Shown piece by piece: positions 11,284 to 54,535 of a stretch of DNA of 64,000 bases. How positions within the stretch are numbered: the first letter of the stretch is position 1; each line of letters starts with the position of its first letter. The notes under the pieces are model-generated. The model saw only the letters and a list, made by a program, of their open reading frames with translations, was not told where the DNA came from and made no database searches. Made by a program: the position numbers and the translations under genes. Origin of the DNA: Microgenomates group bacterium (GTDB taxonomy: Bacteria > Patescibacteriota > Microgenomatia > UBA10105 > UBA927); NCBI GenBank assembly GCA_049287205.1, contig JBAQFJ010000001.1:575041-639040 (forward strand), given 5' to 3'.

Positions 11284-11964
11284 TTAAAAACGGTATTTAA
11301 TAAGTGTCCAAAATGCGATAATACCATCTCTCCACGTCAGTTTTTTCCCTTCAGAAAACTTTCTGCCGTAATAGGAAATTGGCACTTCATATATTTGATA
11401 TCCTTTTTTTAACACCTTCGCCGTTATTTCCGGTTCCATGTCAAATCGCTTCGATTGTACTGTAATTCCTGAAAGTACTTCCTTCCGAAACGCTTTAAAC
11501 CCGGTTTCCAAATCTGTAATATTTGCGTTATACAATATATTGTTTACCAATGTGACAAATTTATTCCCCTGCGCATAGACAAACATCGTTGACAAATGCG
11601 GTCCTAAAAACCGGGAACCGTATACAATGTCAACTTGTTTGTTTTCAAACGGGGCAAGAAGCACCAAATAGTCTTTTGGATCATATTCCAAATCCGCATC
11701 CTGGAAAAGAATATAATCGCCCTTGGCTTTTGTAAGTCCAATGGTTACAGCGCTTCCCTTTCCTTCATTTTTCTGTTTGTATACGACCGTTACTTTTTTC
11801 TCCCAAGCAACAAGTTTCTTTTTCGTTCCGTCGGTTGATCCGTCATCCACAACGATAACCTGCTTGTTCCAATCAGGCAACTGCACCTCAGTCACACGAT
11901 GAAGTATTTCATCAATGGTATGAACCTCGTTATAGACAGGAATAATAATAGATACTTTCTTCAT
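11284..11964 (-). CDS. GT2 glycosyltransferase, DPM1/GtrB-like (polyprenol-phosphate sugar synthase-like)
   Basis: From internal ATG at 11964: MKKVSIIIPVYNEVHTIDEIL...VVDDGSTDGT...QDADLEYDP. The longer ORF-track form (to 12201) would overlap the upstream gene by 240 nt. The short form gives a 4-nt ATGA junction. Confidence 0.8.
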   Translation of the reverse strand: MKKVSIIIPVYNEVHTIDEILHRVTEVQLPDWNKQVIVVDDGSTDGTKKKLVAWEKKVTVVYKQKNEGKGSAVTIGLTKAKGDYILFQDADLEYDPKDYLVLLAPFENKQVDIVYGSRFLGPHLSTMFVYAQGNKFVTLVNNILYNANITDLETGFKAFRKEVLSGITVQSKRFDMEPEITAKVLKKGYQIYEVPISYYGRKFSEGKKLTWRDGIIAFWTLIKYRF

Positions 11965-13055
11965 GCGATAAACCAGCCCCTCAGAAACAGAGCTGTAGCC
12001 ATTATCTCCAATATCGTACTTCCGAGCAAGAGCGATATCTTGATTTTTTTTGATGGAATTGAACCTAGAATAATAAATAAGGGTACTGCTGCCAAAATAT
12101 ACCGAGGCATCGATGAAAATGTGCCGGTAAGTGTAGGAATCGTGAGAACCACAAGACAGTATAGAAGTGCCGCCAGTGAAATCCGTTTTCTCCCAAGCCA
12201 CAATGCTACATACGAAATACCGGTCATAACAAATTCAAGCACGGTCACGAGATAGGACATGACAGTCGGCTGCATATATGCGGTGACTAACATTTTTAAA
12301 TATCGCCACACCACTTGCGGAGGGGAAATGAGTGCACTCCCGCTTCTGTTTGCACCAAAGGCAGACTGTACATGCATAAAAAGGAATGGGTCATTTTGCG
12401 TTGCGTTTAAAAAATACATATACCAAAACAATCCGATAGGCATAATGAGAAACCCAAGAATATCAACAATACGAATGTTCTTTGGTTTGGACCCAATATA
12501 TTCAATCAATGCATAGAGAGCCAGACAAATACCGATAATCCGGATCGCGCTTGCTACAGCTATCACAACGCCTGCCCACAAAAGCTGTTTTTTGGAAACG
12601 AAATGCATAACAAGTACCACGCACAAAAAAAATAGACCTTCGGTATACACAGCCCGAAAGAAAAAACTCGTCGGGAATGCAAGAAGAAATACTGTGGTGA
12701 ATTTTGCAAGCCTCTGCGATTTCTTCGCAAGGAGTGCATAAAGTATCATGAGCCCAATCAAAAATGAGATAAGAGAGATTCCAACGCCAATATATTCATA
12801 AGGTAACGGAAGTATCTGATGAAACGCGCGCATAAGCAGTGGATAGACTGGAAAAAACGCATATGCATACTGATAATACCCCGATTCAGCTATTTTTACA
12901 TAATGCACCCCGTCAAAATTCCCCCATGGAGAAACACCAAAATAACCGGTCCGAATAGGAATAAGATATGAAACCTTTTCTATGAGCTGCAAGGTAACAC
13001 CCCAGACTGCAAACGCAAGAAGAACAAACTTATTTTTTTGCCAAAATTGTTTCAT
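11961..13055 (-). CDS. polytopic membrane mannosyltransferase-like protein resembling the PIG-V/Gpi18 (GT76) family
   Basis: From ATG at 13055 (MKQFWQKNKF...). The loop motif GNFDGVHYVKIAESGYYQYAYAFFPVYPLL closely resembles the D-x-x-H-[FY]-x-x-IA-x-x-GY...FAFFPxxP signature I recall for PIG-V mannosyltransferases. About 9 helices. Confidence 0.5.
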   Translation of the reverse strand: MKQFWQKNKFVLLAFAVWGVTLQLIEKVSYLIPIRTGYFGVSPWGNFDGVHYVKIAESGYYQYAYAFFPVYPLLMRAFHQILPLPYEYIGVGISLISFLIGLMILYALLAKKSQRLAKFTTVFLLAFPTSFFFRAVYTEGLFFLCVVLVMHFVSKKQLLWAGVVIAVASAIRIIGICLALYALIEYIGSKPKNIRIVDILGFLIMPIGLFWYMYFLNATQNDPFLFMHVQSAFGANRSGSALISPPQVVWRYLKMLVTAYMQPTVMSYLVTVLEFVMTGISYVALWLGRKRISLAALLYCLVVLTIPTLTGTFSSMPRYILAAVPLFIILGSIPSKKIKISLLLGSTILEIMATALFLRGWFIA

Positions 13056-14085
13056 ATACAGCAACTGTTTCGTGAGCAGTTTTTTCCCAACTAAATGTTT
13101 TTGCCCAAGCAATACTATCCATATGCATCTTTTTTTTGGCTGTCGGTGACAATGTAAACATACGAATAATAGTTTCCGCCATACCTTGCACATTGCCGGC
13201 ATCCATTCTCAATGAGGGCCCTGCAATCTCACTAAGACTTGAGTTATCTGCAACGACAACGGGACAGCCGCATACCATTGCCTCCAAGACCGGCAGTCCG
13301 AATCCCTCATAAAAGGACGGCTCTACTAAACAGGTAGCCATCGAATACAACCCGACTAATTCTTCCTGACTGACAAAACCTGTCATCGTGACATGATCTT
13401 CAAGATGCAAATCATGGATACATTGTTCGATTTTTTGTGTTTCCTGAAGTTGACTGTTTTTAAATGCTCCCCCAACTAGTACTAAGTGAGTATTTTTCTT
13501 TTTTTGAAGAACGAGTGCGAATGCGGATAACAACCCAAGCACATTCTTATTCCAATTCACATCGCCGACAAATAACATAAAATTTGCAGGCAATTGATAT
13601 TTTTCCTTGATTACCTGTTCCAATTGTTTACTCTGTTTGACTTCATATCCTGGGGTCGCGGCAGAATACACCGCATGGATTTTACTTTCAGGTATTCGCA
13701 CAATGCGTTCAACGTCTTTTTTTGAACATTTTGAGACAGTAATAATGCCTTCGACTCGACGAAGCGCGATCTTTTGCATGTTCCACTTCACTCTTCCCCT
13801 GATTCCTGCGGGGAATTGTTCAGGAAACACCAATGGGATCAGGTCATGAACGGTTACGACAGTCGGAATTGTTTTTTCCCATGGGAGCGTCAAAAAAAAC
13901 GGGTCGAAATAGGGATAATGCACTATTTCTGCAGTATCGGGTATTTTTTCTCCTCGAGTAAAAAAACTATACGAATGTTTAGATTCATACTGCTGTAACG
14001 CATCAATAAGATTTTTGGTGTATACACCCACTCCACGCATGGCGTGTCCTGAGGAAAGTGGTGTTGTGTCTATCGCAATATTCAT
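13030..14085 (-). CDS. GT4 family glycosyltransferase
   Basis: EGFGLPVLEAMVCGCPVVVADNSSLSEIAG (E-x7-E) and the upstream GGAFKNSQ Rossmann-like segment. Confidence 0.85.
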   Translation of the reverse strand: MNIAIDTTPLSSGHAMRGVGVYTKNLIDALQQYESKHSYSFFTRGEKIPDTAEIVHYPYFDPFFLTLPWEKTIPTVVTVHDLIPLVFPEQFPAGIRGRVKWNMQKIALRRVEGIITVSKCSKKDVERIVRIPESKIHAVYSAATPGYEVKQSKQLEQVIKEKYQLPANFMLFVGDVNWNKNVLGLLSAFALVLQKKKNTHLVLVGGAFKNSQLQETQKIEQCIHDLHLEDHVTMTGFVSQEELVGLYSMATCLVEPSFYEGFGLPVLEAMVCGCPVVVADNSSLSEIAGPSLRMDAGNVQGMAETIIRMFTLSPTAKKKMHMDSIAWAKTFSWEKTAHETVAVYETILAKK

Positions 14086-15683
14086 TGGTGTTTTCTCCTA
14101 TACCAAAGTATACCCAATATAGCAAAAATCACCAAACTAGCCACTGAAACCGCGTCAGCGAGCGTACGAATGAGGGTTTCCTGCATAACAAGACGCACGA
14201 TATGTGTGCCTTTTGGAACGCGTACATCAATCGTGCCTTGGCTTTGATAGTCAATTGGTGTCGATACCCCGTCAACATATGCAGTCCATCCCGGAAAATA
14301 GAGTATGTGAAACCGAATGACCGTATCACTACCGAGTGACACTGTATACTGACGATCAAGATATTTCTCATTCGGGCCATCCACAATAATAGGATTCCCT
14401 TCCGTATCCGTTGCAATTGTCAGCGACTTTGTTTCTTTCCAAGGCGTCCAGATGGTCGACAAACTGTTACCCATGGACGATGTACCGTCGGTAAAATTTG
14501 ATCGGGATGCATAATATGCATCGTTTCTCGATTCATACTGTGCCCCCCGCGTGTAAGGAAATGCAAAGAGCACCGAACAACAGACGAGGAGTATTGGAAT
14601 CCACAGTTTTTTTGATTGTTCGGTGGTAAAGGCGGAAGCCCATGCAGTAAACGGGATCATAAGAACCAATAATCGCCATGGATATTGCAAGTACGGCAAT
14701 ACAGGCACATGCTGCCATATCCATACAGATGACGGCAATACAAGATATATGCTTACCGCCATAATCCCAATGACAACAAACAGCTCGCGCTTTTGTTTCG
14801 TAGATGCCTTTTTTAACCGAAAAATTATGTATCCAACCCACAACAAAACTGCAGCCCCTATCTGCAAGGACATTTTATTCCCGCTCGATCCAACACCTGA
14901 AAATTCAGTTCCCCATGAAGGAATAAGAAGTTCAGGAATGCTTGCAAAGTGATCAATGACACTCACTGTGTTTAACCCCACCATATAGTGTGACTCGGCA
15001 ACCGCAGGTAACCAAAACCATGCTGACAATCCAATTCCCAATACAAGGCACGCAAGCCATTTGGCGCTCAGTCGATACAACACATACAATCCCAATATCG
15101 GAAGAAAGATGATGGATAATCCGTTATGCGAAAGCAGTAATAAACACGCAGCAAGCGTCAAAAGGAAACCAGAACGTTTTTCAATACTAAAAAAACCTAA
15201 GAATAGAAATGTAATTGCCCATATTTCCCCTATAGATCCTCGTACGTACAGCTCGACAAACCAATACGGCACAAATGCAGCGGCAATCGTGCCAAAACTC
15301 GCGCTTTTTTGTGACCATTTCGTTTTTAACCACAAAAAACAAAATACCAGTGCGGATAAATACGCAAAAGCGCTTGTATATTTAAACGCAGTGACGAATT
15401 CAACACCAAAAACATGGAATAACGCTGCCATATAATTTGGAAACGGATACATAAACTGAAACAATGGTAAACCATATCCGCTATTTATTGTCGGCGCCCA
15501 ACGTGGGAACAGATACCCTTGGCTCAGCATGCGATAAAACTCCATAAACCGGATTATGTGATATTCCCCGTCATGTGTCGGAAGAAAACGGTTGCCTAAA
15601 AAAGGAAGTATTGCGACAACACCAAGTACCAAAACAACAAGTAATCCAAGGAAATTCAATATTTTTTTATTTTTTATGTTCAT
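14082..15683 (-). CDS. short YfhO-like polytopic membrane protein (GT-C) with C-terminal beta-sandwich module
   Basis: 533 aa. N-terminal THDGEYHIIRFMEFYRMLSQGYLFPRWAPTINSGYGLPLFQFMYP motif is shared with 19254..20912, 44064..45740 and 45742..47295. C-terminal YFPGWTAYVDGVSTPIDY...VPKGTHIVRLV module is shared with the long YfhO-like proteins. Confidence 0.6.
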   Translation of the reverse strand: MNIKNKKILNFLGLLVVLVLGVVAILPFLGNRFLPTHDGEYHIIRFMEFYRMLSQGYLFPRWAPTINSGYGLPLFQFMYPFPNYMAALFHVFGVEFVTAFKYTSAFAYLSALVFCFLWLKTKWSQKSASFGTIAAAFVPYWFVELYVRGSIGEIWAITFLFLGFFSIEKRSGFLLTLAACLLLLSHNGLSIIFLPILGLYVLYRLSAKWLACLVLGIGLSAWFWLPAVAESHYMVGLNTVSVIDHFASIPELLIPSWGTEFSGVGSSGNKMSLQIGAAVLLWVGYIIFRLKKASTKQKRELFVVIGIMAVSIYLVLPSSVWIWQHVPVLPYLQYPWRLLVLMIPFTAWASAFTTEQSKKLWIPILLVCCSVLFAFPYTRGAQYESRNDAYYASRSNFTDGTSSMGNSLSTIWTPWKETKSLTIATDTEGNPIIVDGPNEKYLDRQYTVSLGSDTVIRFHILYFPGWTAYVDGVSTPIDYQSQGTIDVRVPKGTHIVRLVMQETLIRTLADAVSVASLVIFAILGILWYRRKHQ

Positions 15684-16788
15684 GATATTTTTTCATACCG
15701 TACACAGCTACGTATAACCCCAATGGAATAATCGTCAAAAGTGTCCTTGCCATGGGTCCAAATCCGCCGTACTGCCCCATGTATATATATGGAAGATGCC
15801 TCAGCTCTAATGCAAATGATAAACAAAGCGTCCAACCGATAAGAAACGAGTGTTTCTTTATGTCCAAAAAAGCTGCGATACTAATCAACCACACAGCGTA
15901 CCATGGATATAATTCTTCACGGAGCGGCGCAAGAACAAAAAAAACAAAAGACATGAGTCCGTACGCATACAGTAACAGCCTTTCCCAAGAAATATTTTTC
16001 AATACCATAATTGGCGCGAGGACAAGTGTTGGAACTTTTGTACACCATGAGAAAATAAGAAATAATAAACCGAATAGCTTCTTTTTTTCGTGCCAAAGAT
16101 ATACCCCGAGCATCGCAAACAGCATCATCATGATATCATTATGCCCCGACACCAATACTTCAGTGAGAATCAGCGGATTCAAAGCAAAAAATATCACATT
16201 TTTCTTTGACTTAGTAACACTATAGATGAAAAAAATGAAAAGGAGATATACGAGGGCGTTTAACAATTTAAAAGAAATTATTGTTCTCCAAATATTTCCA
16301 CCGCCTAACGCGTTCGGTAACGCAGTTATTCCAATCCACAAAGGACCATAGAGAGCGACTTTGTTAGCAGCCCGCGTAAATGCGAGATATGGTTCATTTG
16401 GAATTTCAATTGGCATCACGATGTACGGATTCTCATGATGCGTGAACGCGACTTTTGCAGTCGCCATATAATTAAACAGATCATAACTTAATGCGGAAAA
16501 AGAACACACAAGTATGATAACTGTTGTTCCTATCACAATCCATAATTTTTTCCATGAAACGAATAGTTTTTCTGATTGAAAAAAAGCAAATACATACCAC
16601 CCTGTTAACCCCAAAAGAATAAGAAAAAATATGAGTGCAGCCAGTGGCCGATCAAAATATACTATATGACGCAGTGGCGCAAACCATGTAAGAAGCAACG
16701 TATTGTTTGTGAGTGACAGATTTAAATCAATAAATCCATACGAAAAAATGGTAAAGCTTATAAGAATAATAAAATACAGTATTATCAT
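15667..16788 (-). CDS. polytopic membrane protein, 'HxNPY' paralogue family (putative GT-C)
   Basis: 373 aa, about 10 helices. YDLFNYMATAKVAFTHHENPYIVMPIE motif is shared with 48868..50046 (YDFFNYLFTAKTVLVYHKNPYVVTPLQ). Confidence 0.5.
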   Translation of the reverse strand: MIILYFIILISFTIFSYGFIDLNLSLTNNTLLLTWFAPLRHIVYFDRPLAALIFFLILLGLTGWYVFAFFQSEKLFVSWKKLWIVIGTTVIILVCSFSALSYDLFNYMATAKVAFTHHENPYIVMPIEIPNEPYLAFTRAANKVALYGPLWIGITALPNALGGGNIWRTIISFKLLNALVYLLFIFFIYSVTKSKKNVIFFALNPLILTEVLVSGHNDIMMMLFAMLGVYLWHEKKKLFGLLFLIFSWCTKVPTLVLAPIMVLKNISWERLLLYAYGLMSFVFFVLAPLREELYPWYAVWLISIAAFLDIKKHSFLIGWTLCLSFALELRHLPYIYMGQYGGFGPMARTLLTIIPLGLYVAVYGMKKYHEHKK

Positions 16789-17930
16789 GTTCGTTTTATA
16801 TGATGCCTCTTATATACAACCTGTTTTGCAATCGAAAAAATAGCCCATATCATCATGCTATAACAAATCGGCAAAAAAGGCAGAAGATACCGAGCAGATG
16901 CTTGTCCTAGGGATATAAAAACACTGTATACAATGATGCAAAGAGCAGATATCTGTATAGCTGGATCCAGTTTCTTAACGATTGAACTTGCCGCGTACAA
17001 ACTTGTCAATATTCCGCTACCAATGACAATCGGCCAGGAAATAACCCAGCTTGCATCCTGAATAATCGGGATCTCTCCCCACCAAACATACCATTTGTTC
17101 AAAAAAATAAGCGGCCATATGGTAAACAGATGATTTAATTTTCCGTTTTGATACCAATACAGCCATTTTTGCACTTTCAACACCTCAATTACCGAATAGC
17201 CATCCATAAACATGCGAATGTATACCAATAGCGTCGTTATAAGGATTATTCCTCCTCCGCCTACGACATACCAAAAATATTTTGGCTTTTTTAAAAGAAT
17301 ATATAATGTAATCACCGCGGTAAACACTATCCCTATCAGCCAAACTTTCGTCATCATGGCACATCCAAGGAACAGATATGACAATAAAAGATAGAACGGT
17401 TTATCTTTTTTCAGTGCAAATGACGCAGTGATAACTGCATACAAAATAAAGGTGATAAAAAACATATCCAGTAACGGCGAAAATGAAAGTTGGTCCACAA
17501 ATAATCGTTCGAATGACGCGATTAAAACTGCGCCTAACGACATAATTCTATTATTTGTCATGAGTAGCACAAGCAAATAGATTCCGAAAAGCATGAATAC
17601 AAAAAAGAATGCGATACTTATGTGTTCATTGTTTGCTATCAAAATAGAAAGTCCAATGAGATATTTCCCGAGCGGCGGTTGAGTAGGTTCAACAATTATG
17701 GGGCTGGCGCCTTTGAGATATGCACCGGCCGCATATGCGTACACAATTTCATCAGGAATCCACGACTTCCATTCTTTCATTGTGTATTGTGATTGACCAT
17801 ATACATTTTTTAGACTTTCATATCGCATCCAGTAATCTGGTGCATATGCATCTCTATGCTGATATATCGTCCACCCTACACGGAAACATATGAGAATAAA
17901 AAGAAGAATAGTAATTACTTTTTTTGCCAT
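16785..17930 (-). CDS. short PMT/GT39-like membrane glycosyltransferase
   Basis: Loop-1 motif WIPDEIVYAYAAGAYLKGASPIIVEPTQPPLGKYLIGLS matches the DE...(H)PPLgK signature of protein O-mannosyltransferase/ArnT-family GT-C enzymes. 381 aa, no MIR domain. Confidence 0.55.
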   Translation of the reverse strand: MAKKVITILLFILICFRVGWTIYQHRDAYAPDYWMRYESLKNVYGQSQYTMKEWKSWIPDEIVYAYAAGAYLKGASPIIVEPTQPPLGKYLIGLSILIANNEHISIAFFFVFMLFGIYLLVLLMTNNRIMSLGAVLIASFERLFVDQLSFSPLLDMFFITFILYAVITASFALKKDKPFYLLLSYLFLGCAMMTKVWLIGIVFTAVITLYILLKKPKYFWYVVGGGGIILITTLLVYIRMFMDGYSVIEVLKVQKWLYWYQNGKLNHLFTIWPLIFLNKWYVWWGEIPIIQDASWVISWPIVIGSGILTSLYAASSIVKKLDPAIQISALCIIVYSVFISLGQASARYLLPFLPICYSMMIWAIFSIAKQVVYKRHHIKRT

Positions 17931-18502
17931 GGAGCTGTTTTAGAACCAACGTATGTATACTGCTCTTTAGTGTCTTGGAGGGCATTCAGTAGAGTATTTC
18001 TGATTTGAATAGATGTATCTAACATTACGCCAATGGATAAATCTGTTGCCACTGCTTTTTCAGGTATCCATTGAAATTCGTTGGGCAACCATTGCTTCAT
18101 ATACTCAATGGTCGATACATGCGTCTTCATCGCTTCAACTACAATTGTCTTCTGAACGCTCATATCTTTTCCCTCACGCATTCCTTTTTCAATAAGCGAG
18201 GTGATGTCAACAAGCGCGGCATCAGACCGGGTAATAGCGTCTGCCGCAAGCAAATACTGTTTATATTCAAACAATGTTTTTGCCTCAACCAAATATTTAT
18301 CTGAAAGGCTGAGGTGGTACTTTATTTGTGCAATCGTTCCCCAATTCCAGTAATTTTTTAGCGTATCCATCATTCGTGACACGCGATAGATTTTGTTCCC
18401 CGGCATAAAGGATGGGTATGGAAGAACGTATTCTGCATACACCTGAGGAACAAAATACATAAAGCTAACAAACAGCAACAAATACAAACTTATTTTTTTC
18501 AT
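17915..18502 (-). CDS. secreted hypothetical protein (signal peptide, alpha-helical)
   Basis: MKKISLYLLLFVSFMYFVPQVYA signal-like N-terminus; 195 aa; overlaps both neighbours (16 and 4 nt). Confidence 0.5.
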   Translation of the reverse strand: MKKISLYLLLFVSFMYFVPQVYAEYVLPYPSFMPGNKIYRVSRMMDTLKNYWNWGTIAQIKYHLSLSDKYLVEAKTLFEYKQYLLAADAITRSDAALVDITSLIEKGMREGKDMSVQKTIVVEAMKTHVSTIEYMKQWLPNEFQWIPEKAVATDLSIGVMLDTSIQIRNTLLNALQDTKEQYTYVGSKTAPWQKK

Positions 18503-37054: not shown

Positions 37055-39369
37055 ATTGCAATACCAAACAATGTAATGATGCCTAATCCTGATACAATCA
37101 TACCAATACGAAACCCGACGGGATAATATCTGTATTCTATTGTATGCATACCGGCAGGCACTGCAACAGCCCTGAAATCATAATCAGCTCGAAACACTGT
37201 AGTTTTCTCACCATCTATGGTTGCATTCCAACCTGCATCAAACACATCAGATAAAAACAGTAGTTTTGGCACATCGCTTGAAGTTTTAATTGTCACTACA
37301 TTTGGAGAATAGAACAAAATCTCCGCTTCTCCGTCACCTGTTTCCGGTTTGATGCTCGGCTCAGTCTCCAATAGTACTGTGTTTCGTAGATCAAAGTCAG
37401 GAGCAAACAACCGATCAATTATCTTCTGATCGTTCGATATCACTTCGAAACTTGATGCTAAAAATGCCCGAGGGAAACTTTTTTCATATACGTATACTTC
37501 ATATTGTCCGTCTTCATAGGTTTTCTTCATATCACCAGTTTCGTATTGCCACACAGGAAATGCCCAGATATTTCTTCCATCACTCACTCGATGCATAATA
37601 TAGCGAACCCCAAGAAGTTGCAGTACCTGATCTCTATACCTCCCGTGTTTATCAAACATCACAACCGATCGTCCCCCTGGAGCAACAATACCATTTGACG
37701 AGGCATTGATAAATTCCGCAAATCGACCCTGATACATTGCATCATATCCTTCTATAAGAGAAATACTAGATGTCATACCCGTTTCCCCACCGATATTTCC
37801 AAACATCCGATACGACCCAATTTCACGCTTTACGTGTTTCAAGACATTCATTTCCGGATAGACAAATCCTTTTTCATCAAACGGCATCCATTTGGAAGCA
37901 TATCGATACATATCAAACATCGTGAGCAGAAGTAATGCAATAATTGGCAAGCTATACCATTTCATTTTTTTTATAAACCCTGATGCCATAAGAACAAGCG
38001 ATGCACCAGCGAGTGCCGTAGGGAGGATGAGATTTCTTTTGGCAATGATATTTCCATCATTTGTAAATGGCTGTATCACCAGTATAAGAAACCACACAAT
38101 AACAATGACAAGTACAAGAGAACTGGCAAACAAAAGATACCTCGTTAGTTTTTTTGTCTTCCACGCGTCAATGAGGTCATCCATTCCAAAACCCGCAAGT
38201 GCTGACAGAGATAAACTAAACAGAATAATAATACGTGATGCCGCACTTGTTGAAACGACCGGCAATTTCAACGCAAAAAGCAAATCATTGAGTGGCGTTG
38301 GATACGCCAAAAAGATAGAAAAAATAGCGAGCACGCTAAAAAACCGAACGTATCCTTTCATTTTTCTCGTAATTGCGTATAGAGCAAAAATGAGTGGGAT
38401 GACTCCAACGTAGCTCGCCCATTCAGCATAATGCCCAAACCAATCATTTCGAGTCACTGGATTTCCATAAAAATCCGGTGAAAACACGGTCACAATATAC
38501 TTCCACGGGATGACCTCTCCTTTGATAAAACTGGAATTCCGAGTGGAAGACATATACGCCTGAAGAGTCAACAAAATTTGCGGCATTGCTACCAATACAC
38601 CTAAGATAGAAACGATACCAAGCAGTAGTCCTTGTTTAAACTTTCTTGTTGAAAGCGTTACAAATAATATGTACGCTGCTACTGCCCCTGTGACATACAA
38701 AGAAATCTGAAAATGACCGGACAGAAAAGAACATGCAATACTTCCCGCGAGGATGACCAAATACCACCACTTATTTTTCTTCATGTATGCAGTTACTGCC
38801 CACAATGCATATGGCAGACACAATGCGGCATACCCAAGTGTTCCATATGCCATCCATGTGGTCATAAACCCGCAAAACATAAACGAAATAGACGAGAGTG
38901 TTGCGGCATTTTTAGACCTGCCGAGAGACCTGATAAACACATACATGCCGATTGCCGCCAAAAGAGGTTGCAACAATACAAATACACTCCATGCATCGAT
39001 AAATGACAGCAGAAAAAATAATACATTAAACGGTGAAAACACAGCAGACTGATAATTTGCCGCATGCGTGGTGCCAGCAAAACTGTACGGATTCCAAAGC
39101 GGAATCTGGCCGAGCTTCAAACTTTCTATGGTAATTTTTTTCCATGGATATATCTGGGATATGACATCGGGCATTGCGTTGTTTTTGACAGGCATACCGT
39201 ATGCCGTGTTCCATGGGGGGAAAAATGTGACAAGATATGTAGACGGAAACGGAACAAGACCTTTTCCAAAATACGGGAAACAAAACGCGACCCACAATAC
39301 AATAATTGCTAAAAGTGGAAGAAAAGAAAACCGTTTTTGTTTCATGATTTGTTCTGTTGTTTTTCCCAC
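37030..39369 (-). CDS. long YfhO-like polytopic membrane glycosyltransferase (GT-C)
   Basis: 779 aa. IPLWNPYSFAGTTHAANYQSAVFSPF N-terminal motif. C-terminal SDVFDAGWNATIDGEKTTVFRADYDFRAVAVPAGMHTIEYRYYPV module. The probable start is the internal ATG at 39345, giving a 4-nt overlap. Confidence 0.65.
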   Translation of the reverse strand: MGKTTEQIMKQKRFSFLPLLAIIVLWVAFCFPYFGKGLVPFPSTYLVTFFPPWNTAYGMPVKNNAMPDVISQIYPWKKITIESLKLGQIPLWNPYSFAGTTHAANYQSAVFSPFNVLFFLLSFIDAWSVFVLLQPLLAAIGMYVFIRSLGRSKNAATLSSISFMFCGFMTTWMAYGTLGYAALCLPYALWAVTAYMKKNKWWYLVILAGSIACSFLSGHFQISLYVTGAVAAYILFVTLSTRKFKQGLLLGIVSILGVLVAMPQILLTLQAYMSSTRNSSFIKGEVIPWKYIVTVFSPDFYGNPVTRNDWFGHYAEWASYVGVIPLIFALYAITRKMKGYVRFFSVLAIFSIFLAYPTPLNDLLFALKLPVVSTSAASRIIILFSLSLSALAGFGMDDLIDAWKTKKLTRYLLFASSLVLVIVIVWFLILVIQPFTNDGNIIAKRNLILPTALAGASLVLMASGFIKKMKWYSLPIIALLLLTMFDMYRYASKWMPFDEKGFVYPEMNVLKHVKREIGSYRMFGNIGGETGMTSSISLIEGYDAMYQGRFAEFINASSNGIVAPGGRSVVMFDKHGRYRDQVLQLLGVRYIMHRVSDGRNIWAFPVWQYETGDMKKTYEDGQYEVYVYEKSFPRAFLASSFEVISNDQKIIDRLFAPDFDLRNTVLLETEPSIKPETGDGEAEILFYSPNVVTIKTSSDVPKLLFLSDVFDAGWNATIDGEKTTVFRADYDFRAVAVPAGMHTIEYRYYPVGFRIGMIVSGLGIITLFGIAIWTKKQKN

Positions 39370-40998: not shown

Positions 40999-41921
40999 AG
41001 CCCCAAGCTTTTCCGTTTAATTTTCTTGATAATGTTGGCAACAATATTTTTTGAATCTTTCATCGATGCGGTCAGCGTCCAATAGGAAATTTCCTTCCCC
41101 CGCTCTTTTAATTCATCTGACACCGCCGAAAGCTGAATGTCACGTTCTTCAAATTTATCCATTTCCCACTTTTTTGCAAATGTTGCAAATGAATAGAATG
41201 CCTGAAACATCGATAAAACCAGTCCGTGCAGTCCATCTTTGTATCCGCCTTCCGCAAAATATATTTTTATAAAATCTGATATTGGAAACCTGAGCGCATC
41301 AAACCAACTTAACTGATAATTACTTTCTGTGAGCGTTATTGCTTCACTTGATGATGCCCTGTCAATTTTTGCGAGGTACTGAGAAACTGATTCGTAATTA
41401 TAATGCGTATACGGCTCATCCAACTCCCCAACTTTTCCAACTACTTCAATATATTCATGAATATGTACACAAGGAAACTTACCTTGCGGGCGTCTGAACA
41501 GTCGTATCTGCTTATCCGGCCACCAAAGCCCGTGTTGTATCCAACGCCCGAAAGAAAAATTTTTACGTTTTATCCAAAAACCGTTTTCTTCCGGATTTCG
41601 GGCAATCAACTTTTTGATTTCTGTTGCTAAGGCAACCGGAAGTACCTCATCCGCATCTAAATTAAGAATCCAATCGCCTGTTGCCTTCGAAAAACCATAA
41701 TTTTTATTGATGTTGAGCATCAGTTGGTTTTTCTGAACAAAAACTTTTTTTGTATATTTTTTTGCAATGTTTGCTGTGGCGTCAGTTGACGAATTATCAA
41801 CAACTATGATTTCATCTGCAATTCCTGTTACGGATTCAAGACACCGAGATAATGTTTTTTCTTCGTTATATGCAGACACTACGACACTCAACGTGTATTT
41901 CATATTATTTCTCCTTTGCAA
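40995..41921 (-). CDS. GT2 family glycosyltransferase
   Basis: LSVVVSAYNEEKTLSRCLESV...VVDNSSTDAT...LDADEVL; 308 aa. Confidence 0.85.
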   Translation of the reverse strand: MQRRNNMKYTLSVVVSAYNEEKTLSRCLESVTGIADEIIVVDNSSTDATANIAKKYTKKVFVQKNQLMLNINKNYGFSKATGDWILNLDADEVLPVALATEIKKLIARNPEENGFWIKRKNFSFGRWIQHGLWWPDKQIRLFRRPQGKFPCVHIHEYIEVVGKVGELDEPYTHYNYESVSQYLAKIDRASSSEAITLTESNYQLSWFDALRFPISDFIKIYFAEGGYKDGLHGLVLSMFQAFYSFATFAKKWEMDKFEERDIQLSAVSDELKERGKEISYWTLTASMKDSKNIVANIIKKIKRKSLGL

Positions 41922-43350
41922 TACGGATAACTTCCATAATTTTTCGTTTTTCTGTAAGCCAGACGATAGTCATATAGAGAACAACACCAACGCCGCCGAT
42001 AATAATTAAACGCATCCATGTATACGGCGCTGACCACACAACAGCCGCATACCACCCTGATTGTACAAGGGCCGCAAAAAATGGCCACTTCACACTACGC
42101 GTAAACGAAAAATCCGCAATCTTTTTTCCAAGCCAAACAACCAGTCCAAGGGTGGAAGTTAACAAGACTAAGCTCATCGATACACCGTTAAAGCCGAAGA
42201 AACGGATCATCGTTATTGTCAAAATCCATGTGCTTATTGTCCAAAATACCATTAAATATAGTGTTGTTTTAATTTTACCGACCGCATTTAACGCATTAGT
42301 GAGCGGTGTGGAAAATCCCGCAAGGATTGATGCGATAACAAATAATGCAAATGAAAACAATGCAGGTTCCCATTTACTGTATTTTGGAATCAACTGGACG
42401 GCAGGCCCGATAAAGAAGAGCAACCCGACTGATATCGGAAACATTGTTGTTGCCAGTCCAAACAAAATTTTTTCAATCGCTTTCCCCAGATGCTCTTTGG
42501 AATCCTGAAGACGTGAGAACGCAGGAAATGTCACCCGAATAACACTATCCATGATAAGCCGTAACGGCACCTCTGCCCATTTCTTTGCCCAACCGATATA
42601 TCCTACTTCAGTAAATGTCAAAATCTTTCCTAAGAAAACGGTCATTAAATCATCTTTGAGAAGCGACAAAAACGAATTAAATTGAAACGGAACACCAAAT
42701 TTTAACAACCGCTTCGCAATAGGTTTAGATATCCCAAGTTGTATCTTCCACGGAGAAACAATATACATAATACCAAGTCCAATAATTGCTCTTGTAAGCA
42801 CCGCATACGTAAAACTGGTTATCCCAAATCCACGCCAAGCCAGTATAACTGCAACCGCATAAAATCCTACAGTCTCGGCTATCTGGGGAATGATGAGCCG
42901 GTTAAAGTTTAATTTTCTCTCCAGTAGGATTGACGGAATTGTCTTTAATGAAGAAAAGAAAAATGAAACAACAAGCGCCCGAAGGAGCAGGATGCCTGAC
43001 GCATCAAGTCCATAAAACCTGGCAATATACGGAGAGGCAAAAAAAACAATAATGCTGATTGGCAACACTAACATCTGTTGAATAGTGAATGTTGTAGATA
43101 AATCCTCTTCAGTTAACATTTCTTTCTTTTGGATGAGTGCGGCGGCCAATCCTACATCAGAAAAATAGGAAAGAAAAGAAATAATCGCGGAAACCACATA
43201 ATAAATACCGAATGTCGCGGGATTTAAAAATATGGTCAATAAAAACGTCGAAGCAAATGCGATAATTTGCAGCAAAAATGTCCGTGAAGTAAGCGCCAGA
43301 ATACCCGTTAATGACTTCTTTTTGATGGTTGCGATATCAATTTCTTCCAT
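41905..43350 (-). CDS. Wzx-like oligosaccharide flippase / polysaccharide biosynthesis protein (MOP superfamily)
   Basis: 481 aa, about 12-14 helices. N-terminal KKKSLTGILALTSRTFLLQIIAFASTFLLTIFLNPATFGIYYVVSAII typical of Wzx/PST-family exporters. Confidence 0.65.
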   Translation of the reverse strand: MEEIDIATIKKKSLTGILALTSRTFLLQIIAFASTFLLTIFLNPATFGIYYVVSAIISFLSYFSDVGLAAALIQKKEMLTEEDLSTTFTIQQMLVLPISIIVFFASPYIARFYGLDASGILLLRALVVSFFFSSLKTIPSILLERKLNFNRLIIPQIAETVGFYAVAVILAWRGFGITSFTYAVLTRAIIGLGIMYIVSPWKIQLGISKPIAKRLLKFGVPFQFNSFLSLLKDDLMTVFLGKILTFTEVGYIGWAKKWAEVPLRLIMDSVIRVTFPAFSRLQDSKEHLGKAIEKILFGLATTMFPISVGLLFFIGPAVQLIPKYSKWEPALFSFALFVIASILAGFSTPLTNALNAVGKIKTTLYLMVFWTISTWILTITMIRFFGFNGVSMSLVLLTSTLGLVVWLGKKIADFSFTRSVKWPFFAALVQSGWYAAVVWSAPYTWMRLIIIGGVGVVLYMTIVWLTEKRKIMEVIRIAKEK

Positions 43351-44101
43351 ATCGTTTCGGCAATTTTTTCCATGGTCTTGTGGTAAATAGCCGTTTCAGT
43401 CCGTCAAGATCACCTGTTGCAGTCTTAATGACACGCACTGTCGAACCGGGATTATCTATCCATGTGACCGGCTCTTCATAGATGCGGTATCCTAATTTTT
43501 CGGCTAAGATAAGCAGTTCAGAATCAAAAAACCACGCGTTGTCAACAACATGCGGCAACAACATTTTTGCGGATTCATCTGTAATTGCCTTAAACCCGCA
43601 TTGCGCGTCTCCGAATTTTACAAAAAATAACATCTTGATGATCGCGATATACATTTTTGAGGTAAACGTTCTGAGCACACTTCGCCCATACACCCGACTT
43701 GCACGCGCGTTCCTTGTACCGATTGCGATGTCATATCCGCGTTGAAGCGACCTGACCAATGGCGGAAGATGTTTCAAATCGGTTGACAGATCCACATCCA
43801 TATAACAATGCACATCAGCATTCGTCTCCATCCATGCTTTTTTCACCGCTCTTCCTCTTCCTTTTTGCTCTAATCGAAGTGTATGGACAAACACGTGATT
43901 TTTTGCAAGCATTTTTGATATGACTGGCGTTTTATCCGTTGAAGCATTATCTGCAATGGTAATAGTCCATGTAAAATCAGGAAGATACGAATGCAAAAAC
44001 GTAATCAACGTTTCTGTATGCGCCTCCAATTCTTCTTCCTCGTTGTATACAGGGATAACAATATCAAGCCTTGGTTTTTTTTCCATAAATATATATCGCA
44101 C
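43337..44101 (-). CDS. GT2 glycosyltransferase, DPM1/GtrB-like polyprenol-phosphate hexose synthase
   Basis: LDIVIPVYNEEEELEAHTET...TIADNASTDKT...YMDVDLSTD and CGFKA motifs characteristic of dolichyl/undecaprenyl-phosphate glycosyl synthases. The likely start is ATG at 44086 (MEKKPRLD). Confidence 0.75.
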   Translation of the reverse strand: MRYIFMEKKPRLDIVIPVYNEEEELEAHTETLITFLHSYLPDFTWTITIADNASTDKTPVISKMLAKNHVFVHTLRLEQKGRGRAVKKAWMETNADVHCYMDVDLSTDLKHLPPLVRSLQRGYDIAIGTRNARASRVYGRSVLRTFTSKMYIAIIKMLFFVKFGDAQCGFKAITDESAKMLLPHVVDNAWFFDSELLILAEKLGYRIYEEPVTWIDNPGSTVRVIKTATGDLDGLKRLFTTRPWKKLPKRYGRN

Positions 44102-45740
44102 CGATGACGAACACCCCCAGTATACTCATCCAGTTCCCGAGCACCCGCACCGGTGTATCGCGAAAGCGCAATTCTATTATACTAATTCCGCTCTGTATAG
44201 TCACAGAAGGAAGACCCTGTTCAATGCTGGGATCAATTTCTCTTCCGTTGACCGTCATTTTCCATCCGGGAAACCATGCTTTATGTATCGTAATCTTTTG
44301 TTCTGTTTCACTCATAATTTCCACAACAAATGACGCACTTGCTTCAGTGAGACGCATAACAGAAAATGCACTCTCTCCTGAAACAGTGACTTTCGTCACC
44401 TCACTTGCCGTCTTTGGTCTCAGAATGGCAAGTGGAAGATATTCATCCGAAATTTTTGATTTTATAAACCGTAATTCTTCAAAACTCTCAAACGCGCTAC
44501 TCTCCCGAACGTATTGGTATTGAGGTACAAATATTTTTGCATTCACTAACATTGTTGCTGCAATAATACCTACCGACAACATGATTCGAATACCGGGAAT
44601 ACGGAATACGGAAATACTGTATGCTCCACCGATTGCAATTCCCATCATGCCAAAGGTTAACAGTCTCCACGGATATTGAATAAACGATGTATATGGAATC
44701 ATACGCCAGAAAGAAGCGGATATTGAAAGCATCAAAAGAATGCACAGAAGTACGCTACCAATTGTTGCTTTCATATACGCATTTTTTTCGTGTACTTTTT
44801 TAGAATTCCTCATATATGCCCACATACCAACGGCAATCCCAAAAAGCAGTATATGCAATTTCCCAAATTTAAATGACATACCGTCAACACACCCTGGAGC
44901 TGAACCCGCAAATCCCCATGGCGCATTCCATAATTGCGAGGCGCAGACAAAATGATCAAAAAATGTGGTACTCGCCGAGCTAACCATCGCGGCAACTGAC
45001 GTCGCTGACATTTCAACAAACGCGGGTAACCAAAAAAATGCGGAAAGGGAAAGTCCCAGAGCCATAACAACAACTGGAACCACGACGTCTTGTCTTGTTA
45101 ATTTTTGTTTTATCAATTTCATTACCCAAAAAATGCATATTCCCAATAGCAGCATCGCACAGGTCAAAAAACCTAGGATAGTATGCGACGTAATGACACC
45201 TGCAAGGGCAAGTCCGGCAATTGCTATCTGTGAATGAAATCTTTTTTCTTTCAACGCGCGGAGCAGTCCGGAAAGGATAAGCGGCACAAATGCGATCGCC
45301 CAATATTCCCCAACTGACCCGCGAATATATATTTGCACAGCGTGATAGGGCGCAAAAAGAAATAGCGTAGCGCCCGCAACTGCAGCTGCAGCGCCAAACA
45401 CAGGAGACAGCAATAAAAATAATGTTATAGGGGCAAGGACTGCCCCAATGCCAAACATGACCTTTGTTGCAACAACACTGTCCATTCCAACCGCATATAA
45501 AGAGCCGCCAATATAATACGGCAATGGTCCATAAAAATTAAAAATCGGATATCCTAAACCATATCCGAGATCCGAAACCATCCGCACAGGAAATTGTCCG
45601 TCACGAAGCGCACGCCCCATTACTACAACTCGGGCAACTTGCGTATCATCATGCATTGGAAAATACCCATCTGAAAGAAGCGGCTTGATGGCAAAAAATG
45701 ATACAACAATAATACAGATAAAACCGAACGCTTTTTTCAT
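44064..45740 (-). CDS. short YfhO-like polytopic membrane protein (GT-C)
   Basis: From ATG at 45740 (MKKAFGFICIIV...). PMHDDTQVARVVVMGRALRDGQFPVRMVSDLGYGLGYPIFNFYGP motif; C-terminal WFPGWKMTVNGREIDP module. The ORF-track N-terminal extension to 45797 would overlap the upstream paralogue. Confidence 0.6.
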   Translation of the reverse strand: MKKAFGFICIIVVSFFAIKPLLSDGYFPMHDDTQVARVVVMGRALRDGQFPVRMVSDLGYGLGYPIFNFYGPLPYYIGGSLYAVGMDSVVATKVMFGIGAVLAPITLFLLLSPVFGAAAAVAGATLFLFAPYHAVQIYIRGSVGEYWAIAFVPLILSGLLRALKEKRFHSQIAIAGLALAGVITSHTILGFLTCAMLLLGICIFWVMKLIKQKLTRQDVVVPVVVMALGLSLSAFFWLPAFVEMSATSVAAMVSSASTTFFDHFVCASQLWNAPWGFAGSAPGCVDGMSFKFGKLHILLFGIAVGMWAYMRNSKKVHEKNAYMKATIGSVLLCILLMLSISASFWRMIPYTSFIQYPWRLLTFGMMGIAIGGAYSISVFRIPGIRIMLSVGIIAATMLVNAKIFVPQYQYVRESSAFESFEELRFIKSKISDEYLPLAILRPKTASEVTKVTVSGESAFSVMRLTEASASFVVEIMSETEQKITIHKAWFPGWKMTVNGREIDPSIEQGLPSVTIQSGISIIELRFRDTPVRVLGNWMSILGVFVIGAIYIYGKKTKA

Positions 45741-45741
45741 A

Positions 45742-47295
45742 TCATTTTTTCTTTGTTCTTTTACGCGATGCAGATGTATTTGTAAAAAAGAATACAACGC
45801 AGGAAATCACATACAATAGGCCAAAGACCACACTCACAACATCGGCAAGAAATCTTCCCGGCGTTTCACGAAATTCCATATAGAGATGATGTTTTCCTTC
45901 AGGAACCATGATACGCATAAACCCATATGGATTATCAGACAGTATTTTTACGGGCGCATCATCAAGCATTGCACCCCAACCTGGGTAATAAATTGTATTA
46001 ATCTGCATAATACTTTTTTCTGTGGCGTGAATAACTACGTCTATTTTCTGGGTAGAAATTATTTTTTCTTCGATCGTTCCGTTCCCCATGAAAAATTCCA
46101 CTTTTTTTGTACCGCGGGTCGACATATGTTTTGCGGCCCAACGCGGCATATATTCGTCATGCACGGTAGTAGTTGCTTCATTTGTTGTAAAGTACCCCTC
46201 AGGATGTATAACGCTTTCGGACTGTATATATTGCGTTCCCCATACAGCCGTCAAAAATATCACCAGACAACAACCAGCAACAAGCGCCCCTTTTTTTGTT
46301 TTGTTTATGGCTGCTCCGATAATCCATGGACCTGCAATCACCATATACGACAGCCATCGAAATGGAAATTGAATAAATTTAACAAAATCCGCAACTCGCC
46401 AAAAAAATGCGCTTCCGCGGGTCGCAAAATACACACTGATTGCCAAACTTGCAAGAAAAAATATGGTTTCTTTTTTTTGACGCATCGGCCGTTTAAACGC
46501 AACATACAAAGCGGCGATAAAAAATGGGAAACTCGCGAGGATAAGAGAATTGCTCATGGTAAAATATGCGCCTGGATTGGAAATGACGGTTGTGTCGAAA
46601 TTTACAAATACCCGTTCAAAAAAGGCAGGAAGCCAAAAGAATGAAGACATTCCAACTCCAAAAATAAACTGCGGAATAAGGTGCCAATATTTTTTTAACA
46701 CTATGTATGCCAATGCCAAAGGAATAAAAAAAGCGGCGAGTGTATTATGACTGATTGCCAAAAGCGCAATGACAGGCGCAAGCAACCATGTATTTTTAGA
46801 CTCAATGACATACAGTACAAGCGGCATTAATCCAAGCGCGAGAACTTCTCCCACTGATCCCCGCTTAAAAATATCAAATAACAGATAGGGCATTAACAAA
46901 TATGACAATGCTCCGGTAACGCTCGCAATGTTCGAAAACGACAAACGCAACCACAAAAACATTCCTATAACCCCAATCATCACTGACCCCACAAGGATTG
47001 CTTCAACTGATGTCTGAAAAGATAATCCAAGCACGTGCAACATGCTTCCAATATACATAAATCCCGGATATAAGAAATTCGCGACCGGATACCCATAACT
47101 CTGATTCAATCTCCCCAAAAATCTGACTGGAAATTGCCCTTCACGAAAACTTTGATAAAACGCTGATAATCGAATAACCATCCAATTTCCGTCATCTGTG
47201 ACGAGCATACCTGGACGAAGAATAGGAGATAAAATAACGAGGGATACGACAAGTAAAAAGAAAATACTAAGCAATAACCATATTTTTTTATTCAT
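45742..47295 (-). CDS. short YfhO-like polytopic membrane protein (GT-C), tandem paralogue
   Basis: VTDDGNWMVIRLSAFYQSFREGQFPVRFLGRLNQSYGYPVANFLYP; C-terminal IYYPGWGAMLDDAPVKIL...VPEGKHHLYMEF; 517 aa. Confidence 0.6.
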   Translation of the reverse strand: MNKKIWLLLSIFFLLVVSLVILSPILRPGMLVTDDGNWMVIRLSAFYQSFREGQFPVRFLGRLNQSYGYPVANFLYPGFMYIGSMLHVLGLSFQTSVEAILVGSVMIGVIGMFLWLRLSFSNIASVTGALSYLLMPYLLFDIFKRGSVGEVLALGLMPLVLYVIESKNTWLLAPVIALLAISHNTLAAFFIPLALAYIVLKKYWHLIPQFIFGVGMSSFFWLPAFFERVFVNFDTTVISNPGAYFTMSNSLILASFPFFIAALYVAFKRPMRQKKETIFFLASLAISVYFATRGSAFFWRVADFVKFIQFPFRWLSYMVIAGPWIIGAAINKTKKGALVAGCCLVIFLTAVWGTQYIQSESVIHPEGYFTTNEATTTVHDEYMPRWAAKHMSTRGTKKVEFFMGNGTIEEKIISTQKIDVVIHATEKSIMQINTIYYPGWGAMLDDAPVKILSDNPYGFMRIMVPEGKHHLYMEFRETPGRFLADVVSVVFGLLYVISCVVFFFTNTSASRKRTKKK

Positions 47296-47309
47296 AAGAA
47301 GGGTATTGA

Positions 47310-48833: not shown

Positions 48834-48867
48834 TATAGCGGAATAAACAGGGGTGTTACAAATACAA

Positions 48868-50804: not shown

Positions 50805-50807
50805 AGG

Positions 50808-52349: not shown

Positions 52350-52355
52350 AAATAA

Positions 52356-53528
52356 TTAGGTTCGCTTTTTCCAAATCACGCGAGAATACATAAAATAATT
52401 CCAAACAAGAAGCAATGAGGTACCTATCAAAAAATAAACAAAATAATACGTTTCTCCGAAAAGACGTGTTGCAAGTTCAATTGTCCCTGTTTGGATAACA
52501 ATAACACCAAACAACGATGTTCCGTAAAATTGGATAAGTTTCCCTAAATATTTCCCAACGGAATCAATCTTCTGATCCTTAAATGTCCAAATGTTATTAA
52601 AATTAAAATTAGAAAATATGGCAACGGCTGCACCGATAAGGTTTGCGATCGAGGCGGATAATCCGACAAGTTCCCGAAAAACAATAAGCAGCACCGCATT
52701 CAAGACAAATCCAATTCCTCCTACGACAAGGAATTTCCCAAACGATCCGTATCTGAGTTCGTGAATGAGTGAACCTGCAACATAGAGAAGTACATTTTTA
52801 ATATATTCCCCCGGCGCTATTTTTGAATGACCATACAGTCTGTCTGTAAAATGAATCGGCACTTCCACAATCTTCGCCCCGCTCGAAATAGCCTTATGTA
52901 AAAATGCTATCTGAAACACATACCCGCTGTACTCCTTCATCTCACCGGCAAACAGTTCATAATATTTTTTCTTATACGCGCGATACCCGCCTGTCCAATC
53001 ATGTGTTTTGGGAAAACGCAAGCCATAACGAACGATGGCATTACCCAATACACTAAAAATTTTCCGATGCAATCCCCAATTGTCAGGAATTGATCCACCT
53101 TTGATATATCTGCTTCCCACGACAAAATCCGCTCCGTCATCAATTGCCGCCATAAACAGTGGAACACGTGTCGGATCATGAGACAAATCACAGTCCATTT
53201 GGATAACAATTTCAGCTTTCAATTCTTCGACTGCATACGTCATCCCGCGAAGAAGCGCCCTTCCTAGTCCTTCTTTTTTTCCTGTGATGATATACGTGTC
53301 TTTGTGTGTTTTTATATATTCATTCACCACTGCTCCTGTACCGTCAGGTGACGAATCATCTACGATGACATAGGTGATTGCGTGATTTTTAATCTTTTTT
53401 GCTTCAACATGTAACGCATCAAGGAGCGTCACAATATTTTCGCGCTCGTTATACGTTGGGAGAATGATGACCGTTTTCATAGAAAACACCTTTTGGTCTA
53501 CCTCGACTATCAGACCCGTTCTCGCCAA
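52356..53528 (-). CDS. GT2 polyprenol-phosphate sugar synthase fused to C-terminal GtrA-like membrane domain
   Basis: N-terminal VIILPTYNERENIVTLLDAL...VDDSSPDGT...QMDCDLSHDP (DPM1-like). C-terminal 120 aa has four helices with FLVVGGIGFVLNAVLLIVF...NFNFNNIWTFKD (GtrA-family pattern). The likely start is ATG at 53480. Confidence 0.75.
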   Translation of the reverse strand: MARTGLIVEVDQKVFSMKTVIILPTYNERENIVTLLDALHVEAKKIKNHAITYVIVDDSSPDGTGAVVNEYIKTHKDTYIITGKKEGLGRALLRGMTYAVEELKAEIVIQMDCDLSHDPTRVPLFMAAIDDGADFVVGSRYIKGGSIPDNWGLHRKIFSVLGNAIVRYGLRFPKTHDWTGGYRAYKKKYYELFAGEMKEYSGYVFQIAFLHKAISSGAKIVEVPIHFTDRLYGHSKIAPGEYIKNVLLYVAGSLIHELRYGSFGKFLVVGGIGFVLNAVLLIVFRELVGLSASIANLIGAAVAIFSNFNFNNIWTFKDQKIDSVGKYLGKLIQFYGTSLFGVIVIQTGTIELATRLFGETYYFVYFLIGTSLLLVWNYFMYSRVIWKKRT

Positions 53529-54469: not shown

Positions 54470-54478
54470 ACAAATTTT

Positions 54479-54535
54479 CCTCCTTAAGTACTTGAATTTA
54501 GGTATATTATACCGTAAACATTTATAAAACGATAT
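54479..54535 (-). promoter_or_regulatory. RBS (GGAGG at 54479..54483, minus strand) plus candidate sigma70-like -10 (TATAAT, about 54503..54508 minus strand) in the 65-nt ugd-SDR spacer
   Basis: Minus-strand reading: ...TTTACGGTATAATATACC...CTTAAGGAGGAAAATTTGT-ATG. It is one of only a few spacers over 40 nt in the array. Confidence 0.4.

Follow-up and report, generated by a model that had tools for sequence, protein, structure and literature searches.

The YfhO proteins of Firmicutes are the GT-C component of three-part systems, in which a C55-P-sugar made by a GT-A glycosyltransferase (GT) is flipped by a GtrA-type protein and then used by the GT-C enzyme to glycosylate teichoic acid outside the cell (PMC8035078). 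Members of the family (PF09586) are about 750-880 residues long and include the YfhO of Bacillus subtilis and Staphylococcus aureus, a GlcNAc transferase of lipoteichoic acid, and that of Listeria monocytogenes, which serves wall teichoic acid. Streptococcal PgtC2 and PgfM1 apply the same transfer logic to Ser/Thr-rich protein regions (bioRxiv 10.1101/2024.05.05.592596). Searchable literature yielded nothing relevant on YfhO or GT-C enzymes in Patescibacteria, and the copy of the PDB searched holds no entry from the YfhO lineage. Here we describe four short YfhO-like proteins, S1 to S4, encoded beside three long YfhO proteins, L1 to L3, in a 64,000-nucleotide stretch (the window) of the genome of a Microgenomates group bacterium (contig JBAQFJ010000001.1, positions 575,041 to 639,040). 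The four add to a kind of enzyme that is already known, and their domain architecture is reduced.

The explanation that we favour, and regard as likely, is that S1-S4 are anciently diverged integral-membrane GT-C glycosyltransferases of the YfhO lineage, probably all active, with a minimal architecture: a GT-C membrane core, an extracytoplasmic β-sandwich of ~70 residues and a final membrane helix. All four open reading frames (ORFs) of the original prediction were recovered, each on the minus strand (Table 1). Their products align end to end (BLASTP E 6e-27 to 4e-73, 25-32% identity, 44 invariant columns) and are full-length paralogues of one family. An upstream TTG at 45797 could also open the S3 ORF; the start at 45740, an ATG, agrees with the paralogue alignment, and a gene call of 558 aa on a near-identical contig matches this ATG. 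The direct tandem proposed at 44064..47295 is present, S4 preceding S3 with 1 nt between the S4 stop codon (TGA) and the S3 start. The sequence patterns proposed as common to the four proteins are essentially there, with small deviations: S2 has IPRW for FPRW, S4 has SYG for GYG, and S3 has HDD (no G) for HDG, GLG for GYG and no G-x-H (GISII). The pattern [YFW][FY]PGW-x3-[VLM][DN][GD] is found in all four.

The long proteins are clear YfhO members in the PF09586 scan that had been proposed as a check. They carry the related patterns PGW/AGW/SHW-x3-[IV]D[GD] and G-x-H-x-[VI], and the spacing from PGW to G-x-H is 28 residues in L1-L3 and the same in S1. The relationship between the two length classes was examined with hhalign, using for each class a profile built from a 38-sequence alignment of database homologues. 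The C-termini, terminal helix included, align with 98.1% probability (E 1e-13, 92 columns); when the terminal hydrophobic helix is removed and the β part is compared alone, the match is 98.4% (E 9e-15, 63 columns, S1 439-501 against L3 687-749), and control pairings of mismatched regions give E values of 0.025-0.5. The comparison is reciprocal: a hidden Markov model (HMM) built from the short β modules only (SBETA) matches L1 (5e-8) and L3 (2e-6), one built from the long modules only (LBETA) matches S4 (7.5e-9), S2 (1.8e-8) and S1 (1.4e-5), and neither matches any other ORF of the window. A merely compositional resemblance, which would have undone the proposal of a common C-terminal module, was rejected on these grounds, the β-only comparison leaving out the hydrophobic helix and the controls being clean. 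As judged from the profiles, the C-terminal β module of S1-S4 is homologous to that of PF09586 proteins. It is moreover a general feature of the YfhO lineage, because the C-terminal positions of the Pfam YfhO model match it (model positions 771-823 on S1 447-500, 764-835 on L3 690-760) and the NCBIfam models PgfM2 (E 3e-6) and PgfM1 (E 3e-4) match the L3 C-terminus at their own extreme C-termini.

The homology extends to the membrane core, for which the short and long classes align with 97.5% probability over 317 columns (E 4.9e-12) with the deep profiles and with E 7.5e-9 when the window sequences alone are used. Together with the GT-C fold described below, this bears out the view of one GT-C superfamily in two length classes. 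What distinguishes the long class is a middle domain of ~190 residues, whose profile (LMID) matches only L1-L3; no counterpart was found in the short profiles (hhalign E 0.025-0.22), nor do short-form residues 380-433 match LMID. The short form is ~250 residues shorter than the YfhO proteins of PF09586, lacking this extracytoplasmic domain and part of the helical region. The terminal membrane helix is present in L1, L3 and S1-S4. In L2, alignment and hydropathy indicate that the protein stops right after the β module (...HVVAVQYK), without that helix.

An AlphaFold2 model of S1, computed from the 38-sequence alignment, reached a predicted local distance difference test (pLDDT) score of 87.5 and a predicted template-modelling (pTM) score of 0.90. 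It is helical up to residue 378, followed by a linker, the β-sandwich (434-500) and the terminal helix (504-532). In a Foldseek search of the PDB, nearly all of the top 30 matches to this model are GT-C enzymes, among them STT3, PglB, AglB, ArnT, AftD, ALG12/ALG9, AftA, Emb and Pmt1, with a probability of 1.00 and 400-540 aligned columns; the oligosaccharyltransferase catalytic subunits matched are of yeast, human, bacterial and archaeal origin. The structure prediction and comparison with solved GT-C enzymes that had been suggested thus return, for the S1 model, a GT-C fold with a β-sandwich C-terminus. Sequence-profile searches of the PDB with the short and long classes gave nothing significant.

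Both termini are rich in Lys and Arg and, because of the positive-inside rule, the first loop and the β module would face outward. This first outer loop contains D38, an acidic residue nine positions after helix 1 (residues 6-29 in the model), which is invariant in both alignments examined and is Asp in 98-100% of the sequences of all four orthogroups. Other positions near-invariant in all four are R45, R61, G71-x-P73, P139-Y140, R148-G-x-x-G-E153, H186, P226, E230, W323, Q333-x-P-x-R337 and PGW. As the same residues are kept throughout, none of the orthogroups looks like a dead copy. The role of putative catalytic residue is assigned to D38 from general knowledge of GT-C enzymes.

The β module is a candidate for acceptor contact or for a structural cap. 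Modelled alone, it folds as a seven-strand sandwich (pLDDT 90.5), which the models suggest to be a generic small β-sandwich. Its nearest solved neighbours are accessory β-sandwich domains of glycoside hydrolases (GH146/GH127, GH30 and GH29), with weak structural matches to the carbohydrate-binding modules (CBMs) CBM35 and CBM36. These likenesses and its predicted extracytoplasmic position speak for the original suggestion that it is an acceptor-binding, that is carbohydrate-binding, domain, here one that would set the specificity of each paralogue; a carbohydrate-binding extracellular domain recognizing the acceptor polymer has already been speculated upon for YfhO (PMC8035078). However, no solved structure matches the module at E ≤ 1e-3, and solved CBMs show no match to it by sequence. 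Its most conserved residues (PGW, the turn glycines and G-x-H) are moreover common to the four orthogroups and the long form, a distribution more in keeping with a structural core than with a determinant of specificity, and acceptor binding could be ascribed equally well to the additional 190-residue domain found in the long form. A putative acceptor-binding role is plausible, although we hold the specificity-setting domain to be a tentative possibility, clearly less likely than not. Whatever the module does, the homology indicates that sandwich and terminal helix together go back to the ancestor of the YfhO lineage as a whole.

The genomic context of the four proteins is conserved. Neighbourhoods of S1-type genes were collected from 79 loci of species-representative genomes. 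This neighbourhood is conserved, in the order PMT_2, S2-type, GT2 (18499), DUF5667 secreted protein (17915), unannotated polytopic protein (15667), S1-type, GT4 (13030), GT2 (11284), Wzx-like (9974), lipid-sugar-synthase-like GT2 (9186) and GT4 (8071); counts of loci are given in Table 1. The DUF5667 protein, which has a signal-peptide-like N-terminus, may serve as acceptor or as accessory factor. For S4-type genes, 80 metagenome loci of 39-82% identity were compared, adjacency being counted where the flank was long enough. The order is near-invariant: UDP-glucose dehydrogenase (UGDH), epimerase, GT2-GtrA, PMT_2, GT2, MptA_B-like, PMT_2, S4, S3, GT2, Wzx-like, GT2, GT2, GT2 and an L3-type YfhO. 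This operon of about 15 genes occupies 37030-55833 of the window, L3 being the last gene seen; S4 adjoins S3 at 61 of 61 loci, down to ~40% protein identity, and an L3-type ORF is visible in 22 of the 28 S4-type loci longer than 14 kb. In view of this near-invariant order the tandem pair is old, and one operon has both a short and a long form among its fixed members. Orthologues in other genomes are 40-86% identical, against only 25-32% between the paralogues. S1-S4, the tandem pair included, are not recent duplicates; they represent four long-separated orthogroups, each with its set place in one of the two conserved operons.

The GT2 neighbours add a functional hint. The best NCBIfam matches of those at 43337, 50046, 52356 and 9186 are PgfS, ArnC and Dol-P-hexose transferase, PgfS being the best for the GT2 beside S3 and Dol-P-hexose transferase for the GT2-GtrA protein at 52356. 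This last is a candidate for a lipid-sugar synthase and flippase in one polypeptide. Cytoplasmic GT2s of the operons would load sugars onto polyprenyl phosphate, the GtrA-fused GT2, the Wzx-like proteins or both would flip the lipid-sugar, and S1-S4 would act as lipid-sugar-dependent extracytoplasmic transferases that each attach a different residue to a glycopolymer or protein of the surface, with D38 as catalytic or donor-binding residue. Dependence on polyprenyl-phosphate-sugars and action outside the membrane are the most likely assignments, and they bring with them the putative donor, acceptor, orientation and D38 catalysis. It is likewise probable, as part of the same explanation, that none of the four copies is redundant, each performing a step of its own in one of two operons conserved throughout Microgenomates. 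What is observed in support of this explanation is the fold, the homology and the conservation of residues and of gene context.

Several points weigh on the other side. The donor, acceptor and activity of the short family are all ones that we infer. Foldseek E values to solved GT-C structures are only ~1e-3, with template-modelling (TM) scores of ~0.4; three of the four short proteins reach neither the YfhO nor the PTPS_related gathering cut-off; and the GT2 neighbours lie far below the curated cut-offs of the lipid-sugar synthase models. In L3 orthologues a non-acidic residue is aligned to D38, the N-terminal HDG...R motif of the short form having, relative to L3-type YfhO, an extra loop helix that aligns to no acidic residue; the catalytic assignment is therefore not simply transferable between short and long forms.

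The S4-S3 pair, and possibly S2 with S1, might instead form an obligate hetero-oligomeric GT-C in the manner of EmbA-EmbB or Pmt1-Pmt2. The unbroken adjacency and the 1-nt spacing of S4 and S3 are compatible with this, as is P0241, a database representative of 1116 aa that joins in frame an S2/S4-like half and then an S3-like half. Yet adjacency is true of every gene pair in so rigid an operon and is hence unspecific, S4 and S3 both keep all putative catalytic residues, and the fusion proteins are possibly gene-calling or assembly artefacts; we judge such an obligate heteromer unlikely. The version in which one partner of S4-S3 is catalytically dead was rejected, all conserved residues being found in both. 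We give equally little credence to a broader proposal that builds on the heteromer, namely a Microgenomates-specific glycopolymer line working almost wholly outside the membrane, in which at least six different GT-Cs are encoded by one rigidly conserved ~15-gene operon, the short proteins take dedicated, non-redundant steps, S4 and S3 act together as a heteromer, and the YfhO lineage as a whole would handle its acceptors with the sandwich and its helix as the smallest unit.

Descent of S1-S4 from the YfhO lineage, as favoured here, has also to be set against the family models. A profile of the four paralogues retrieves, among 50%-identity cluster representatives, 26,110 at E ≤ 1e-3, 14,177 at E ≤ 1e-10 and 6,631 at E ≤ 1e-30, and the best 150 representatives, whose lengths have 553 aa as their median, are aligned end to end. 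The relatives that carry a name all belong to the Patescibacteria (Gottesman-, Levy-, Woese- and Roizmanbacteria, with a few Parcubacteria and Saccharimonadales), which sets the hosts of the short form apart from those of Firmicutes YfhO. S1 itself shares 100% identity with a hypothetical protein from a Microgenomates-group metagenome-assembled genome, on a contig of 1.02 Mb; a contig search by exact sequence gave a single 2-kb contig for S1 and none for L2. For many related contigs the record title reads 'uncultured Gammaproteobacteria bacterium', although in gene content they fit Microgenomates clusters and some measure 0.65-0.84 Mb; these titles look like placeholders or mistakes and were not trusted. 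Some representatives (P0241-P0244, P0299 and P0307; 944-3329 aa) contain 2-5 short- or long-type units each and may be real fusions, or artefacts of gene calling or assembly.

Against gathering cut-offs of 28.5 bits for YfhO (PF09586) and 26.4 bits for PTPS_related (PF10131), S1 scores 19.4 bits (E 3.7e-4) and S3 16.7 bits with the former model, which S2 and S4 do not match; with the latter S3 reaches 34.6 bits and S4 9.5 bits (E 0.41), and S1 and S2 have no match. An NCBIfam scan of the short proteins returned chance-level matches only and no usable family. When 38 family members were scanned at E ≤ 0.01, 28 matched YfhO (best 2e-9) and 15 PTPS_related, and some database members are already labelled 'YfhO family protein' or PF10131. 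The short family thus seems to straddle the two models, sitting clearly in neither. The contention that it is an uncharacterized subfamily holds to the extent that it has no characterized member and no clean Pfam model; with at least 6,631 clusters, it is not an obscure one.

The S3 score and the 15 members could be read to mean that the short proteins belong to PF10131 and are distant from YfhO, with a compositional or convergent C-terminus. We find this very improbable, since more members match YfhO, the PF10131 matches cover the membrane core only (model positions 1-320 of 621, the first half), and the helix-free match of the β module to YfhO comes with clean controls and reciprocal HMM matches. 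PF10131 and YfhO, besides, share the GT-C clan, the former with a function that is not known (PMC7801869). That the short forms, being shorter and sharing an island with long ones, are truncated or decaying YfhO copies or recent duplicates devoid of distinct function has next to nothing in its favour given thousands of full-length relatives of 510-580 aa, the gap between orthologue and paralogue identities, the fixed synteny and the intact residue set; recent duplicates and pseudogenes were rejected on the last two counts.

Table 1. Positions of the YfhO-like proteins, their parts and neighbouring genes in the window.
Feature	Position	Strand	Basis or occurrence
S1, short YfhO-like GT-C protein, 533 aa	14082..15683	-	ORF, AlphaFold2 model, Foldseek GT-C matches
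S1 residues 37-39 (HDG), D38 putative catalytic Asp	15567..15575	-	invariance; position after helix 1
S1 residues 434-500, 7-strand β-sandwich (PGW...DG...GxH)	14184..14384	-	DSSP of models; hhalign
S1 residues 504-532, terminal membrane helix re-anchoring β module	14088..14174	-	model; hydrophobic segment 508-526
S2, short YfhO-like GT-C protein, 552 aa	19254..20912	-	ORF, paralogue alignment
S3, short YfhO-like GT-C protein, 558 aa	44064..45740	-	ORF, paralogue alignment, PF10131 above cut-off
S4, short YfhO-like GT-C protein, 517 aa, directly upstream of S3	45742..47295	-	ORF, paralogue alignment
L1, full-length YfhO family protein, 800 aa	27037..29439	+	PF09586 E 6e-33
L2, YfhO family protein, 754 aa	33732..35996	-	PF09586 E 2e-17
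L3, full-length YfhO family protein, 779 aa	37030..39369	-	PF09586 E 2e-22
L3 residues 471-659, extracytoplasmic middle domain, long form only	37393..37959	-	profile comparison
L3 residues 683-749, β module homologous to that of the short form	37123..37323	-	hhalign aligned region
Polyprenyl-phosphate-sugar-synthase-like GT2	9186-9977	-	62/79 S1-type loci
Wzx-like flippase of the S2...S1 cluster	9974-11233	-	62/79 S1-type loci
GT4 near S1	13030		69/79 S1-type loci
Polytopic membrane protein, no Pfam match, directly upstream of S1	15667..16788	-	orthologue at 76/79 S1-type loci
DUF5667 small secreted protein	17915-18502		71/79 S1-type loci
S2-type gene upstream of S1-type			43/79 S1-type loci
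Wzx-like flippase (Polysacc_synt_3) in the S4-S3 operon	41905..43350	-	Pfam E 1.5e-54; 42/42 loci
GT2 directly downstream of S3, polyprenyl-phosphate-sugar-synthase-like	43337..44101	-	Pfam GT2; adjacency at 48/49 loci
GT2 fused to GtrA-like domain (GtrA_DPMS_TM), operon head	52356..53528	-	PF00535 and PF04138 on identical product; 30/35 loci
PMT_2-type proteins	4048, 6724, 16785, 20918, 22539, 47310, 50808; 25509 weakly		Pfam
GT87 protein	24182		Pfam
MptA_B/GT87-like protein	48868		Pfam

Compared with described enzymes, the short family is closest to YfhO of PF09586, with which it shares the homologous core, sandwich and terminal helix and a similar context of GT2 lipid-sugar-synthase-like and flippase-like genes in operons. 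The likeness to streptococcal PgfM1, PgfM2 and PgtC2 consists in the C-terminal module of L3, the PgfS-like GT2 beside S3 and the same logic of a GT-A lipid-sugar synthase paired with an extracytoplasmic GT-C; those enzymes have 880-955 residues and act on disordered Ser/Thr-rich regions, and the matches here are far below equivalog cut-offs. STT3/PglB/AglB, ArnT, AftD, ALG12 and AftA resemble the S1 model in the fold of their membrane domain. They differ from it, however, in their extracytoplasmic domains, are 11-16% identical and give no sequence-level match, and none of the solved GT-C enzymes has a β-sandwich with terminal helix as the matched region.

The seven YfhO-related proteins (three long, four short) lie in a glycosylation island of ~55 kb (window 1591-58970 by Pfam scans) within a candidate phyla radiation (CPR) genome of ~1 Mb; the genes of the window are nearly all on the minus strand and its GC content is ~40%. 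The island encodes sugar-nucleotide enzymes (rmlABCD, UGDH and epimerases), about 13 GT2 and 4 GT4 enzymes, two Wzx-like flippases and the GT2 fused with a GtrA-like domain. The count of seven GT-C superfamily members first given for the island stands but is an understatement, as at least ten proteins of other GT-C families (PMT_2, GT87 and MptA_B) accompany them, including at least eight PMT_2 proteins, seven above the cut-off and one weaker. Such a set, by analogy, suggests serial assembly from lipid-linked sugars. Mycobacterial GT-C sets (PimE, MptA/MptB, Emb and Aft) likewise have many GT-Cs encoded together, and MptA_B- and GT87-type proteins occur in the island too; the analogy is confined to organization, with no orthology to the short family, and an extracytoplasmic assembly line loosely like mycobacterial envelope synthesis is a speculation.

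Devoting ~55 kb and some twenty GT-C-type enzymes to surface glycosylation is considerable for so tiny a genome. The two conserved operons probably make surface glycans by which these episymbionts meet their hosts, and two rigid GT-C-rich operons in a 1-Mb genome may be of more interest than the short proteins themselves. For the latter the result is a useful annotation more than a surprise, enzyme kind, fold and logic being as in known GT-C systems, for a family that is very abundant in CPR organisms and that the available family models capture badly. Defined as the minimal form of the YfhO architecture, it also offers a compact target for structural work on the lineage.

Four polytopic membrane proteins of the island (15667-16788, 11961-13202, 29449-31008 and 31065-32810) have no Pfam or NCBIfam match and are perhaps polymerases or additional, divergent GT-C-like enzymes. 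The second of these is probably called too long, its ORF start (13202) reaching into the upstream GT4. Beyond the edge of the island lie a CAP/SCP-domain protein and a PcsB-like coiled-coil protein with an M23 peptidase domain (59259-60269 and 62825-63991), the latter of a type found in cell-division or cell-wall hydrolases.

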